Source: a virus (taxonomy: Duplodnaviria > Heunggongvirae > Uroviricota > Caudoviricetes). Taken from it: DNA of 28,184 nt. Location: the IMG/VR virus record IMGVR_UViG_2563366957_000012. One strand, 5' to 3'. The position numbers and the translations under genes are program-made. The first letter of the stretch is position 1; each line of letters begins with the position of its first letter. This document shows positions 1-4,336 of this stretch, in pieces. The notes beneath the pieces are model-generated. The model made no database searches, was not told where the DNA came from, and saw only the letters and a program-made list of their open reading frames with translations.

Positions 1-288
1 TTAACGGATCAACATCCAGATCAGCAGACACGCCACCACCGGCACAGCAAAATCCATCAGGCTTGCCACATCCCACGCGCGCGGATCAAAACCGCCCCAC
101 CACGGCATATTCATTCGCTTGCCATGCCCGAACATTTCAATCCAGCGATATTCTGCCTGGGTATGTTCACGCGCAATGAAGAACGTACAACCGGCTATCG
201 CTCCGTAAGCCCAGTTTCCGGTAAAAAGACCAACCAGTACCTGCGCAGCCACAGCACAAAGTGCATGAAGGAAAGGTGTTATATCCAT
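1..288 (-). CDS. Small integral membrane protein (95 aa, two to three predicted TM segments), last gene of the tail-fibre operon; function unknown
   Basis: Complete ORF (ATG at 286-288, TAA at 1-3). Strong RBS AAGGAGG 5 nt upstream of the ATG, lying in the 3' end of the upstream gene. Hydrophobic stretches LHALCAVAAQVLVGLFT and VASLMDFAVPVVACLLIWMLI. No family recognised by eye. Confidence 0.5.
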   Translation of the reverse strand: MDITPFLHALCAVAAQVLVGLFTGNWAYGAIAGCTFFIAREHTQAEYRWIEMFGHGKRMNMPWWGGFDPRAWDVASLMDFAVPVVACLLIWMLIR

Positions 289-298
289 TACGCCTCCT

Positions 299-1003
299 TT
301 ATCCGATATCGCTTCGGGAAACGGATAACAACTTTAATTCTGACTCAAGTTCATCAACTCTTTCAGTCAGCTTCTGGATATGGTGAATCAGTGGAACAAC
401 CAGACGTTCGTACATTACACCTTCGGCAACAAGGCCATTGCTGGAAATGGTTTCCGGTGCATCATCTTCGTTGGCTGGTCGCCAGTGAACAAACTGAGGG
501 GCAATTTCTCCTACTTCCTCGGCAATCAATCCATAGAATCCCCAGTCACGCCTGTCATTTTCGCATTGCGACCTGTACCACACAGGGCGCATCCTGAAAA
601 TGAGATCGGCGTGCTCTGAATCTATCGTCTCTACTGAATGTTTATAGCGGATAGACGATGTTGACCGCAGCACAGACGAAATTGCAGGGTCAGGATTAAG
701 ATAAAGATTTGCCGCCGCTGTAGTTGTGCCCAATCCCCATAAATAAAACGCTTCACGGCCAGTCAGCGGGTAAAAATCTCCGCCATAACGACCACTTTCC
801 AGATCGTTCACTTCCACTTTGTTTTTCAGCTTATTATCCACTTCTGTTTTTGTGTATCTGGTACTGATATCCTGCTTTGCACTGTCCATATCAGTCTGAA
901 GCGTTGATACTTTTACGTTAATTGAGGAAATATCTTCCTTTGCCTTACTGACATCTCCCTTTAGCGTTTTGATGTCATCAGGAATTACTGTCGATGTAGC
1001 CAT
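299..1003 (-). CDS. Tail-fibre-like protein: N-terminal coiled-coil region plus C-terminal intramolecular-chaperone (peptidase S74-like) domain, 234 aa
   Basis: The C-terminal half (SIRYKHSVETI...DLIFRMRPVWYR...GLIAEEVGEIAPQFVH...GVMYERLVVPLIHHIQKLTERVDELESEL) matches the conserved pattern of the autoproteolytic chaperone domain found at the C-termini of endosialidases and some tail fibres. The N-terminal ~70 aa are charged and heptad-like. RBS GAGGAAG upstream of the ATG at 1003. Confidence 0.55.
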   Translation of the reverse strand: MATSTVIPDDIKTLKGDVSKAKEDISSINVKVSTLQTDMDSAKQDISTRYTKTEVDNKLKNKVEVNDLESGRYGGDFYPLTGREAFYLWGLGTTTAAANLYLNPDPAISSVLRSTSSIRYKHSVETIDSEHADLIFRMRPVWYRSQCENDRRDWGFYGLIAEEVGEIAPQFVHWRPANEDDAPETISSNGLVAEGVMYERLVVPLIHHIQKLTERVDELESELKLLSVSRSDIG

Positions 1004-1012
1004 TTTTCTTCC

Positions 1013-1294
1013 TCACATCCAGCTACGGAGTTGATGCTCAACAGCAACCGCGTGTTCATCGAATAATGACGATATTTGCGAATCATTAATGATGCGCACA
1101 TTTACAAAATATCCGTCCTCCTTAACACATACCGGCTCGCCATCTTCAGTCAGTTCTCCGGTTTCTTTGTACACATTACCTATCACGTCAATAAGAATAT
1201 CATCCTGCATCGACTCGTCATCATAATAGCCAATGCTCTCCATAAAGGCCGAAAAGTCGGCCCTGTCGACAAATTTGAGTGTTAAATCTTTCAT
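1013..1294 (-). CDS. Hypothetical acidic protein (93 aa), translationally coupled to the side tail fibre gene
   Basis: Its ATG overlaps the stf stop codon (TAATG at 1292-1296). Very acidic composition (many D/E). It sits where a tail-fibre assembly chaperone normally lies but has no recognisable Tfa motif. Confidence 0.45.
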   Translation of the reverse strand: MKDLTLKFVDRADFSAFMESIGYYDDESMQDDILIDVIGNVYKETGELTEDGEPVCVKEDGYFVNVRIINDSQISSLFDEHAVAVEHQLRSWM

Positions 1295-3672
1295 TAGATT
1301 AACTCCCCCACCTGAGCATCAGTCAATGCCTTGTGCCATATTCTGAAATTCCTGACATGACCAAATAAATGGCGTAAACCGGCTGTAGTCTGGCCTCCAA
1401 TACGGATAATTGCGGAGTTCTGAATACAGGACCATGTGGTTTTTGTTTCGCTGGATATACGCCCGTTACTTACTGCGCATGTAGACTGATCTGACTTTAC
1501 ACGCATCCCCATAACCATTTTTTCAAGCGATGCATTTTCGTTTATCCGCCTGTTAGCCCCACCAATATCGCAATAAGGAAATCCGTCGTAATCTGCTGAA
1601 GAACCGAAGCCAAGAATAATAGCCGCTCCGGTTTGATGACCGCCGGTATCAAAAACACGCGGTGCTGCATTTGGCGTTTTATACCAGTTCTTATGTACCT
1701 CACAAAGAACCGTAAAAGGTAGATTATAAAGATTATTCTTAATTGGGACTGTAACTATATCGCTTGCCCGCGTTACCGGTGCAGCCCCCGTAACAATAAA
1801 AGATGATGCGCCTGTACCAGCCTCAATCTGGGGAGTGGTTACATCGAGACAATCCCCTGATGCCACCATCTGACCTGTATCCGGAGAATACTGGACGAAA
1901 CCACCAACCGTATTTTCTGTTGTATCTGCTTTTAATGTAGCCTCAAAAAATATCCAGCCAGTTGCATCATCCTTAACAGACCTTGCTGTAACACGGCTTG
2001 TCTGACCTGTCTTGCTAATTATGCGGGTGGTAAGGTTCAGGCTTGCTGTTCCTATTGATGTCCTTACCTCCCCATCATAATGTTCAAATAAAATACGAAC
2101 GTCGATATTATCAACTTCACTTTTTACCCGACAGGATATAGTTACATACTTTTCGTCCCCTGAAGTATCAACCCCTCCGGTACTCGAATACAGTCCGATA
2201 ATGGTATGCGCTTTACTTGTACCAACAATCGAATCCTGTACGACAAACCGGCCATAATTAAAACCGAAACTATCTGTGCCTGTTTCTGTAACGTCCAGTG
2301 AAGTTGACTTATTCCACTTCGAAGGGTCTGTACTGTTCGGGAAGAAGTTCGTTCTTTGCCCCTCAATAAGCAGGCCATCACGTTCAAATCGTGGCTCGTC
2401 AATGGTAGCCTCTGTCAGCACACCAGATTTATTAATGTAAGTTGCTTTTGATGCGCGTTTAAACTTAACCACCTTGTCACCAGGCATCGTTATTTCGTCG
2501 TCACCAATAACAATCTTTTTATAAGATGGCGAAAAGCCCGTAATCATATCCAGTGAATCGTTAAATGGTATCCACACATCAGGCAGCGGCTGTAAGACAT
2601 ATTTATACGGCTCCGCAGCCTGGCTTGCGTACTCTCTGGCTGCATCTTCGCTTGCTTTAGCTGCCGTCTGGCTTGCTGCCGATGCTTTCGCTGAGTTCGC
2701 AGCCGCTGTTTCGCTCACCTTTGCGTTGGTTTCACTGGTTTTTGCTGCTTTTTGACTGTTGGCTGATGCAGTGGCAGAAGCAGCCGCCGCGCTTGCAGAA
2801 CTGGCTGCGGCACTCTCGCTTTGGGCTGCTGCATCCTGACTGTTTTTCGCCGCAGTTTCGCTGGCTTTGGCATTCGTTTCGCTGGTCTTCGCTGCCGTCT
2901 GGCTGGACTTTGCGTTAGTTTCACTCGTCTTCGCAGCTTTCTGGCTGTTAGCCGCAGCAGTTGCTGATCCAGCTGCTAAAGTCACAGAACCGGCTGCCGC
3001 GCTCTCGCTTTGGGCTGCTGCAACCTGGCTGTTTTTTGCCGCAGTTTCACTGGCTTTGGCATTCGTTTCGCTGGTTTTCGCTGCCGTCTGGCTGGACTTT
3101 GCGTTGGTTTCGCTCGTCTTTGCGGCTGTCTCGCTATTTTTCGCGTTGGTTTCTGATTTTTTGGCTGCTGTCGCGGAGTTTGCCGATGCAGTCTTTGAGG
3201 TCGCTGCCGCCTGTGCACTATTAGCTGCATTCGTTTCTGAGGTTTTCGCCGCGTTCTTTGATGATGCCGCTGCAGTTTCGGATTTCTTTGCCGCCGCTGC
3301 GCTCTGAGAGGCGGCTTCGGCGTTGCGTGCCACTTCTTCCACCATTGCCTCAAAACGACGCAATGCCTCCGGCATGACATCATCTTCCGTCATGGCACCG
3401 AGAAAATCATTCAGCGTACCTGGTCTGGAACCTTCATAGACGGTAATGGTTCCGGCATGTGAAGGCGGAAAACCTTCAACCAGCAGGGTGACGCTGTACT
3501 GGCCATACTCAACATCCATGCTGTAACGCCCGGCTTCATCCGGATTTTCAGAGGCCACCGTGTTCACCAGTACCGTGGTGCTGTTACGCTTTGCCTTCAG
3601 TTGAATAGTGCAGTTCTGTATTGGTTTTCCCGCACCATCTTTCAGCACACCTGAGATTTTTACTGCTGCCAT
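1294..3672 (-). CDS. stf: Side tail fibre protein (Stf-like): lambda-Stf-type N-terminus, Ala/Ser/Thr-rich repeat region, C-terminal LamG/concanavalin-A-like lectin-type domain
   Basis: N-terminus MAAVKISGVLKDGAGKPIQNCTIQLKAKRNSTTVLVNTV...GRYSMDVEYGQYSV closely matches lambda Stf. The C-terminus ends ...RNFRIWHKALTDAQVGELI, typical of LamG-like jelly-roll domains. The ORF track extends to 3678 through a GTG; the ATG at 3672 has a GGAG RBS at 5-nt spacing and matches the lambda start. Confidence 0.85.
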   Translation of the reverse strand: MAAVKISGVLKDGAGKPIQNCTIQLKAKRNSTTVLVNTVASENPDEAGRYSMDVEYGQYSVTLLVEGFPPSHAGTITVYEGSRPGTLNDFLGAMTEDDVMPEALRRFEAMVEEVARNAEAASQSAAAAKKSETAAASSKNAAKTSETNAANSAQAAATSKTASANSATAAKKSETNAKNSETAAKTSETNAKSSQTAAKTSETNAKASETAAKNSQVAAAQSESAAAGSVTLAAGSATAAANSQKAAKTSETNAKSSQTAAKTSETNAKASETAAKNSQDAAAQSESAAASSASAAAASATASANSQKAAKTSETNAKVSETAAANSAKASAASQTAAKASEDAAREYASQAAEPYKYVLQPLPDVWIPFNDSLDMITGFSPSYKKIVIGDDEITMPGDKVVKFKRASKATYINKSGVLTEATIDEPRFERDGLLIEGQRTNFFPNSTDPSKWNKSTSLDVTETGTDSFGFNYGRFVVQDSIVGTSKAHTIIGLYSSTGGVDTSGDEKYVTISCRVKSEVDNIDVRILFEHYDGEVRTSIGTASLNLTTRIISKTGQTSRVTARSVKDDATGWIFFEATLKADTTENTVGGFVQYSPDTGQMVASGDCLDVTTPQIEAGTGASSFIVTGAAPVTRASDIVTVPIKNNLYNLPFTVLCEVHKNWYKTPNAAPRVFDTGGHQTGAAIILGFGSSADYDGFPYCDIGGANRRINENASLEKMVMGMRVKSDQSTCAVSNGRISSETKTTWSCIQNSAIIRIGGQTTAGLRHLFGHVRNFRIWHKALTDAQVGELI
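2690..3320. repeat. In-frame tandem repeats inside stf (about 192-bp period; two near-identical ~125-bp copies at roughly 2811..2937 and 3003..3127)
   Basis: Direct DNA repeats visible by eye (ctctcgctttgggctgctgca...ggctttggcattcgtttcgctggt...gctgccgtctggctggactttgcgtt). They encode the repeated peptide KTSETNAKSSQTAAKTSETNAKASETAAKNSQ.AAAQSESAAA. Confidence 0.8.
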
Positions 3673-3679
3673 ATCCACT

Positions 3680-3736: not shown

Positions 3737-4336
3737 TCAGAATTTATAACCGACACCCACGATGAAACCGTCAGTGCGCCAGTCGCCACTGCCGGAGCCT
3801 TCATAAGCAATATCAATGGCCACGGATTCGGTCGGGTTAAACTGCACGCCAGCTCCCCACGCCAGAGACGTGTTGCTGTGGCGATCGTCATCACTTCCGG
3901 TCAGCACATCGTGCGTTTTCCCCTTGTTGTCAGTTACGCGGAGATAATCCCCGGAGAACGTCGAAACACGGCTGTAAGCCACACCTGCCATCGCATAAGC
4001 ACTGAACCATTCATTCACGCGTACAGATGGCCCCGCCATCATGCTGAACCAGCGGTTACGCACTGAATCTTCATGCCAGCGGGTATCGCTGTAATGCGTT
4101 TTTTGCTCATCTTTGGCATTGGCATAACTGAATGACGTCACCAGCCCCAGCGTGTCCGTAAATTCATAACGGTATTTCACGTTAATGCCCTTCAGGTCAT
4201 CACTGCCTGGCATATCAGTATGGGTCTGAAGATACCCGGCGCTTAGTGTGGACTGATGCTCTGCTGCGCTCGCTGGCGTACCAGCGGCAACCAGCCAGAC
4301 TACTGCGGACAGAATAACAGCACATAATTTACGCAT
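3737..4336 (-). CDS. lom: Lom outer-membrane protein (Ail/Lom family beta-barrel), signal-peptide-bearing
   Basis: 199 aa, N-terminal signal peptide MRKLCAVILSAVVWLVAAGTPASA, C-terminal aromatic residue (ends GYKF), and the lambda position between J and stf. Confidence 0.85.
   Translation of the reverse strand: MRKLCAVILSAVVWLVAAGTPASAAEHQSTLSAGYLQTHTDMPGSDDLKGINVKYRYEFTDTLGLVTSFSYANAKDEQKTHYSDTRWHEDSVRNRWFSMMAGPSVRVNEWFSAYAMAGVAYSRVSTFSGDYLRVTDNKGKTHDVLTGSDDDRHSNTSLAWGAGVQFNPTESVAIDIAYEGSGSGDWRTDGFIVGVGYKF

Follow-up and report, generated by a model that had tools for sequence, protein, structure and literature searches.

A minimal S74-domain protein and an acidic 93-residue protein downstream of stf in an Escherichia coli lambdoid prophage: probable parts of a two-segment side tail fibre

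In lambda-like phages the side tail fibre gene stf is followed by tfa. In the IMG/VR virus record IMGVR_UViG_2563366957_000012 (28,184 nucleotides, the whole of which is called the window below), stf is followed instead by an open reading frame (ORF) for an acidic protein of 93 amino acids (aa), here p93, and by one for a 234-aa protein with an intramolecular chaperone domain of the Peptidase_S74 family (S74) in its C-terminal half. What do these two small genes contribute to the fibre? A reading made from the letters of the window without database searches (the sequence-only reading) had described all of these features correctly, had called the free-standing short form unusual, and had offered three options for the 234-aa protein: a second short fibre, a trans-acting chaperone for Stf, or a remnant of module exchange. 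The first fits best. With a probability of roughly 0.6, the locus supplies the final two parts of a two-segment side tail fibre made by three genes, the 234-aa protein being a mini distal fibre with a cis-acting chaperone and p93 a fibre-end accessory. This reading is supported by the order and coupling of the genes, the identity and fold of the domain, the invariant catalytic residues, purifying selection, a shared N-terminal peptide, the allele boundary behind it, and homology with a trio of genes in the phage IrisVonRoten.

The first 4.3 kb of the window are coded on the minus strand throughout, with lom, stf, the p93 gene, the 234-aa gene and a 95-aa ORF in this order. The stop codon of stf (1294-3678, minus strand; 794 aa counted from the GTG) overlaps the start of the p93 gene (1013-1294, minus strand) in the TAATG at 1292-1296 (...ATC TAA TGA AAG). 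Between the p93 stop and the ATG of the 234-aa gene (299-1003, minus strand, stop codon included) lie 9 nucleotides (nt), GGAAGAAAA, and a GAGGA Shine-Dalgarno sequence spans the TGA of p93. The stop of the 234-aa gene is followed by AGGAGG, 10 nt and the ATG of the 95-aa ORF. With overlaps and spacers this short, the four genes from stf onwards form one tightly coupled unit. The two small ORFs are real genes: p93 matches phrog_1361 (E=9e-45), the 234-aa protein matches phrog_3299 (E=5e-139), and identical or near-identical copies of both are carried by hundreds of genomes. They share one reading frame, with the TGA and the 9 nt between them (1004-1015). Fusion of the two by readthrough was considered and rejected as unlikely, since in KarlJaspers and VogelGryff the two orthologous ORFs overlap and their frames differ. 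The window belongs to an E. coli lambdoid prophage, an identical 4-kb copy of which is found in eight complete genomes. In one of these the gene annotated next after the 95-aa ORF is the chromosomal yodB; the prophage thus stops one gene past the 234-aa ORF, and no tfa lies downstream. Profile searches gave no match to the Tfa family (Caudo_TAP) for either small protein, so the absence of a canonical tfa noted at the outset is borne out.

The chaperone domain occupies residues 116-234 of the 234-aa protein (302-658, minus strand). The profile PF13884 (Peptidase_S74) aligns over model positions 1-57/58 with residues 116-172 at 27.3 bits, above its gathering score of 22. Across 31 aligned homologues (220-409 aa), S116 and K121 (in SSIRYK) are invariant together with 17 more positions, almost all of them in the C-terminal half; the autocleavage pair, whose serine the sequence-only reading had proposed to look for, is therefore intact. 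S116 (codon 656-658, minus strand) is the predicted nucleophile, K121 (codon 641-643, minus strand) the predicted general base, and T115|S116 the predicted scissile bond. A phmmer search of Protein Data Bank (PDB) sequences returned DT57C LtfA through its chaperone domain (8hqz_d, E=5e-7) and, as a weaker hit, the ICA domain of MyRF (7dc3); S116 and K121 fall at the expected positions in both (in 7dc3, the -5 position and the Lys). The AlphaFold2 model of the monomer has a predicted local distance difference test score (pLDDT) of 85-94 at residues 130-230 and a long C-terminal helix at 198-233. With this model, Foldseek found MyRF ICA (7dc3, E=1.5e-5), the GA-1 chaperone (3gud, E=0.04) and the endosialidase chaperone (3gw6, E=0.1). 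The third gene of the T5-like phage EC122 (L005:5289-7019) and its relatives have Cys at the nucleophile site (SPICDERLK), where Ser is found in IrisVonRoten (AVSDSRLK); theirs could be a variant of the self-cleaving domain that uses Cys as its nucleophile.

According to PMC4728585 and to Schulz et al. 2010 (via PMC12090712), S74 domains in endosialidase K1F, GA-1 gp12, T5 pb1 and DT57C LtfA/LtfB fold the trimeric C-terminal end of the protein and then cleave themselves off. The domain family, the fold and the Ser-x4-Lys pair are the same in the window, whereas those polypeptides have ~650-1400 aa and the passenger here has 115 aa, with cleavage predicted. For DT57C, lateral fibres made of two proteins with S74 domains have been established genetically (PMC4728585). 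LtfA itself bears an S74 domain, whereas the proximal fibre of the window has none, and its architecture is thus unlike the branched lateral tail fibre of DT57C.

The 234-aa protein, labelled 'tail fiber domain-containing protein' in RefSeq, has three parts ahead of the chaperone domain. The N-terminal peptide (codons 1-15, 959-1003, minus strand), MATSTVIPDDIKTLK, is a putative docking element. It is followed by a coiled-coil stalk of the trimer type (residues 9-62, 818-979, minus strand), for which AlphaFold2 predicts helices at 9-47 and 52-62 with moderate confidence over 9-62. A clean heptad pattern runs through five heptads from I11 to I46, with I11, L14, V18, A21, I25, I28, V32, L35, M39, A42 and I46 in the a/d positions. 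The lengths of several alleles step by whole heptads (227 aa is 7 residues shorter, 241 aa 7 longer, 268-269 aa longer by ~35). The last part is a small fibre tip (residues 66-115, 659-808, minus strand), predicted to be kept on the mature protein. Across the 31 homologues N99 is invariant in the tip and T94 and R113 nearly so; the stretch TTTAAANLYLNPDPAISSVLRST just before the predicted cleavage site is also conserved in long fibres.

What the protein belongs to becomes apparent from comparison with other phages. A trio of genes, for a fibre with a galectin/LamG-like end, a protein of ~92 aa and a third protein with the shared peptide, occurs in lambdoid, T1-like, Dhillonvirus, Queuovirinae and T5-like phages. 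The third proteins have 225-586 aa, and nearly all end in S74. The genes after the 92-93-aa gene were compared in seven phages of five groups: T1-like KarlJaspers (225 aa), the lambdoid prophage of the window (234 aa), lambdoid Tritos (346 aa), the Nonagvirus ESCO3 (351 aa), the Seuratvirus VogelGryff (388 aa) and the T5-like IrisVonRoten (574 aa) and EC122 (576 aa). All seven proteins start with M[AV]TxTxIPxDI[TK]xLK and end in S74 (22-55 bits). The distal fibre of the Dhillonvirus KarlBarth starts with the same motif and ends in Phage_tail_C_2, with no S74. Only the N-terminal peptide is thus common to all third genes, and the middle and the end are cassettes. The 234-aa protein is among the shortest alleles of this distal-fibre family. 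The annotation of the KarlBarth fibre (L094:4270-5149) divides it into two overlapping ORFs (98 and 196 aa), a sign of a possible frameshift or split gene.

Of the systems described so far, the trio of the Tequintavirus IrisVonRoten (Bas32) is the nearest. An AlphaFold-Multimer model presents its Gp24 as a T-shaped distal fibre "attached to" the proximal Gp22, which has a galectin-like domain jutting out where its shaft ends (PMC11990801). Stf of the window has an N-terminal prophage tail-fibre domain, a repeat shaft rich in Ala, Ser and Thr, and a C-terminal galectin/LamG-like domain ending in RIGGQTxxGxRHLFGHVRNFRIWHKALTD, a motif kept in 8 of the 8 phage fibres compared. Stf is homologous to Gp22 (52% identity over 761 columns, near-continuous over residues 357-794), the order and spacing of the genes are the same, and the third genes share the peptide (MATSTVIPDDIKTLK in the window and MVTKTVIPTDITKLK in Gp24) and the C-terminal S74. 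Gp23 (92 aa) is homologous to p93 and has the same position as p93, whose gene lies between the two fibre genes and overlaps the first; it is 76% identical to p93 of EC122, which is itself 39% identical to p93 of the window. The differences are that the distal protein of the window has 234 aa against 574 aa and lacks the Gp12-like and T5-like receptor-binding domains, leaving the coiled coil and a tip of ~50 aa, and that the trio stands in a temperate lambdoid prophage with a small membrane protein after it.

The nearest orthologues are the T1-like "chaperone" genes. About 40 T1-like phages carry orthologues of 221-231 aa that are 55-60% identical to the window protein. The T1-like and Queuovirinae genes (KarlJaspers bas06_0035, SECphi27, Jahat_MG145) are directly orthologous to the short allele and share its peptide, coiled coil, tip, S74 domain and position. 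They differ in standing in virulent phages and in being followed by a Gly/Cys-rich gene of ~235 aa where lambdoids have the 95-aa membrane protein. Their labels, "chaperone of endosialidase" and, in BASEL, "putative lateral tail fiber chaperone", suggest that they act as chaperones, for which our analysis gives no support. In complete E. coli genomes the 234-aa gene is intact (>=80% coverage) in 740 of 5426, and the isolated phages IdasGreatGrand, PhiR49_1 and PhiR55_1 have the same four-gene arrangement. A 268-aa version is found on a 60-kb contig with a Gly-rich downstream gene as in the T1-like and Queuovirinae loci; there, and in one more metagenomic case, the gene again comes after a fibre gene and a 92-aa gene. 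The arrangement, far from unusual, is an ordinary one: a common, conserved end of a two-part side tail fibre. What follows the S74 gene in T1-like and Queuovirinae phages (L004:5617-6318, L002:1295-2005, L007:6029-6694) is itself conserved; its product of ~235 aa is Gly-rich at the N-terminus and Cys-rich at the other end (...CCCETNLNIERQ...PTGCCG) and is labelled 'putative sugar-binding protein' in BASEL.

The third gene is also the site of allele exchange. Among the IMG/VR prophages, 80 loci encode a 93-aa protein that is 90-100% identical to that of the window. In these the next gene always begins 9 nt after p93, and the peptide is present in every downstream gene for which there is sequence. 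About 30 of these genes are of the 234-aa type (227-241 aa), about 45 of the 346-aa type, and 2 are disrupted. Throughout the 93-aa gene and for 42-44 nt into the third gene, the nucleotide sequences of the window and of Tritos/ESCO3 are essentially identical; from there on they are unrelated. About 240 further E. coli genomes have no long match to the 234-aa gene, and the matches sampled among them cover nt 1-44 only. The 234-aa and 346-aa alleles are thus exchanged right after codon 14-15, and the conserved peptide is also a recombination boundary, as one would expect if it docked on a partner that is itself conserved. In Tritos, which has the 346-aa allele, a GC-rich hairpin followed by a run of T (GGGGCCGAGCGCCCCGTTTTATT; L003:3280-3322) separates the third gene from the gene for the membrane protein; in the window these two are directly coupled.

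An analogous logic has been validated experimentally in KP32, K11 and KP34, podophages of Klebsiella, which use a pair of branching domain and conserved peptide (PMC13352976). There, too, a second receptor-binding protein docks by a short N-terminal peptide and distal modules can be exchanged, as we propose for the window. The likeness is by analogy only, and no kinship in sequence is to be expected. Those proteins are podovirus tailspikes and have no p93-like companion.

Exchange of modules, to which the third option of the sequence-only reading appealed, is therefore real, in the form of clean allele swapping that leaves no debris. That the 234-aa ORF is the non-functional remnant of a longer fibre gene is scarcely credible. 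Such an origin would account for a match to only positions 1147-1384 of the 1385-position phrog_3299 profile and for the likeness of the C-terminal 170 aa to the way in which longer fibres end. Against it, the ORF has its own ATG, a Shine-Dalgarno site and the conserved N-terminal peptide, and it is intact in the 740 E. coli genomes and in isolated, plaque-forming phages. T1-like phages keep the same length class at 55-60% identity, and the genes upstream are intact. The full-length phage matches all have ~200-270 aa and follow intact fibre and 92-aa genes; the broken C-terminus of a longer gene, which would speak for a pseudogene, was not among them. The window allele was paired with each of 15 other short alleles to calculate the ratio of nonsynonymous to synonymous substitution rates (dN/dS), which is 0.06-0.3 overall and about 0.1-0.3 in all four segments of the protein. 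Values this low indicate a functional gene, and together with the T1-like length class and the 740 intact copies they led us to reject the pseudogene.

The same values bear on the role of the tip. Constraint is strongest there (residues 66-115, dN/dS 0.06-0.18), with the chaperone domain (116-234) below 0.3. A cassette of tip plus chaperone, at 56-65% identity, also ends a longer fibre with Gp34_trimer repeats and a 362-aa Phage_tail_fib fibre. Both findings speak against the idea that the short allele docks on Stf with no receptor role, as a minimal cap, placeholder or spacer at a junction that needs an occupant, and we think this idea unlikely. It does draw on the mature part of 115 aa with no recognisable binding domain, and on the alternation with a 346-aa allele that has a middle domain of ~200 aa. 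A further point in its favour comes from the T1-like K-12 isolates orkinos, JLBYU19, JLBYU10, AV105 and ityhuna, in which the short S74 gene matches in two pieces annotated as two ORFs. The gene appears frameshifted in these, which suggests that it is dispensable on rough laboratory hosts; as fibres are generally dispensable on K-12, the split genes say little about this protein.

The second option, a trans-acting assembly chaperone that serves the LamG-tipped Stf in place of Tfa and stays out of the virion, has an obvious attraction, given that the protein is a chaperone domain and little else, that there is no tfa, and that BASEL names both the T1-like and the Seuratvirus orthologues 'putative lateral tail fiber chaperone'. 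What speaks against it is that the same class of Stf is encoded elsewhere with p93 and no S74 gene. In phage 21 and Lambda_2E9, a Stf with RIGGQT..G.RHLFGH.RNFR.W and a 92-aa protein are followed directly by the small membrane protein. The same holds for 45 of the 51 IMG/VR loci found with the phage 21 protein as query. In the rV5-like myovirus nimi a fibre of 1479 aa ends in the same way and is accompanied by a 110-aa protein related to p93, with no third gene. The galectin/LamG-tipped fibre is thus not generally dependent on an S74 protein. Moreover, the N-terminal peptide is common to proteins of 574-586 aa that are clearly fibres with receptor-binding domains (PMC11990801), the invariant Ser/Lys self-release pair is the hallmark of the cis-acting form, and both tip and coiled coil are under purifying selection. 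On this evidence, a chaperone in trans is very improbable.

The protein that stands in for Tfa is probably p93. It has 21 D+E against 7 K+R (isoelectric point 4.11), and its predicted structure is a small alpha/beta fold (pLDDT 85.9). A first homologue search gave only proteins more than 80% identical, and a second search with a mixed alignment was used to reach the diversity of the family. In 1.8 billion proteins the family has 87 representatives at 50% identity, nearly all of them stand-alone proteins of ~90-110 aa, and 21 positions are invariant across lambdoid, T1-like, T5-like and Seuratvirus members. In the phages and loci compared, p93 is always found alongside the galectin/LamG-like fibre end, with or without the S74 gene. 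As in lambda Stf/Tfa and the Tfa-type systems of Mu and P2, a small gene lies directly downstream of the fibre gene and is coupled to it; p93 differs in having no match to Caudo_TAP or any other Tfa family, and the fibre end is galectin/LamG-like and not a lambda or T4 gp37-like tip. Judging from where p93 is encoded, how it is coupled to the fibre gene and how strictly it co-occurs with this end, we infer that it acts as an assembly or accessory factor in the stead of Tfa. It most likely helps to assemble the fibre end, and it may stay at the junction. A wider view would make the ~92-aa acidic protein an uncharacterised class of factor that replaces Tfa at galectin/LamG-like fibre ends and, with the 15-residue peptide, forms a universal plug-and-play junction at which lambdoid, T1-like, T5-like and Queuovirinae phages swap distal tips, the 234-aa allele being a minimal passenger; this is possible, and we hold it only tentatively, doubting it more than we trust it. 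The p93-family profile (positions ~35-70, the beta-hairpin core) also matches 4-7 repeats in three proteins of 1300-1700 aa (P0252, P0256, P0287), which may be due to chance or to a shared repeat unit.

In the two-segment fibre that we prefer, Stf would be the proximal segment, trimerising into a shaft that ends in the galectin/LamG-like domain, and p93 would assist or decorate this end. The 234-aa protein would trimerise from its C-terminus under its own chaperone domain, by which the tip is folded and the coiled coil zipped. Having acted in cis, the domain (116-234) would then cleave T115|S116 by means of Ser116 and Lys121 and depart. The mature chain of ~12.5 kDa would remain on the virion, with its first 15 residues docking the mini-fibre onto the Stf/p93 end, and the tip may bind a receptor.

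Several points weigh against this picture. The mature part, just 115 aa with no recognisable receptor-binding domain, may bind nothing. The AlphaFold2 monomer is poor at residues 62-98 (pLDDT <50), as would be expected of a tip that is an intertwined trimer. The whole-alignment profile of the 31 homologues found no PDB match at E<=0.01, although the single sequence did; insert columns from the long homologues probably diluted the profile. A structure search with the model of p93 gave no informative relative and no match to any solved chaperone; p93 could be a chaperone, a structural adaptor, or both. Its subtype (~50% identity between clades) correlates with the presence or absence of the third gene, which leaves room for the adaptor role. 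Attachment and cleavage are predicted from homology and from the published AlphaFold-Multimer model of a homologue, and the BASEL authors' label for the T1-like orthologue points the other way. In the literature we found nothing specific on virion proteomics or genetics of the 93-aa and 234-aa proteins, and the Eligo preprint on lambda Stf does not mention chaperones.

These results do not overturn current understanding, as two-segment fibres with self-cleaving chaperone domains have already been described. Of interest are a distal segment that is reduced to an extreme, the wrong labels in the databases, and the uncharacterised partner. The names "chaperone of endosialidase" and "lateral tail fiber chaperone" are misleading for a gene that most likely encodes a segment of the virion fibre, and roughly one complete E. 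coli genome in seven carries this gene, as do many coliphages. The exchange boundary after the peptide of 14-15 codons could guide the engineering of host range in lambdoid and T1-like phages by swaps of the distal tip. The ~92-aa protein stands out as conserved and unstudied, a partner of fibres that have a galectin/LamG-like tip and no Tfa.

Some features of the flanking genes complete the description of the locus. The upstream neighbour of stf is lom (3737-4336, minus strand). For Stf, the Prokaryotic Genome Annotation Pipeline places the start 2 codons after the GTG; the N-terminal domain is PF08400 (E=5e-67), and residues 437-638 match NF048003 GTA_spike_fiber. The shaft (window 2650-3400) consists of near-perfect AAKTSETNAKxS repeats, which, read in other frames or from the plus strand, yield ORFs that are long but spurious, e.g. 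2867-3307 on the plus strand (146 aa) and 2982-3383 on the minus strand (133 aa). An antisense ORF of 157 aa at 124-597, without family match, was likewise taken as spurious. The 95-aa gene (1-288, minus strand), for a predicted small membrane protein matching phrog_1443 (E=2.5e-58), closes the module in lambdoid prophages. It comes after the third gene in most of the 80 IMG/VR loci with enough flank and directly after p93 in the 45 loci of the phage 21 type, and in the phage 21 record its homologue is annotated as a putative membrane protein with 2 transmembrane domains. The protein, encoded by the last prophage gene before yodB, is nearly invariant (MD I[TS]P[FL]LHALCAVAAQ...AREHTQAEYRW...).

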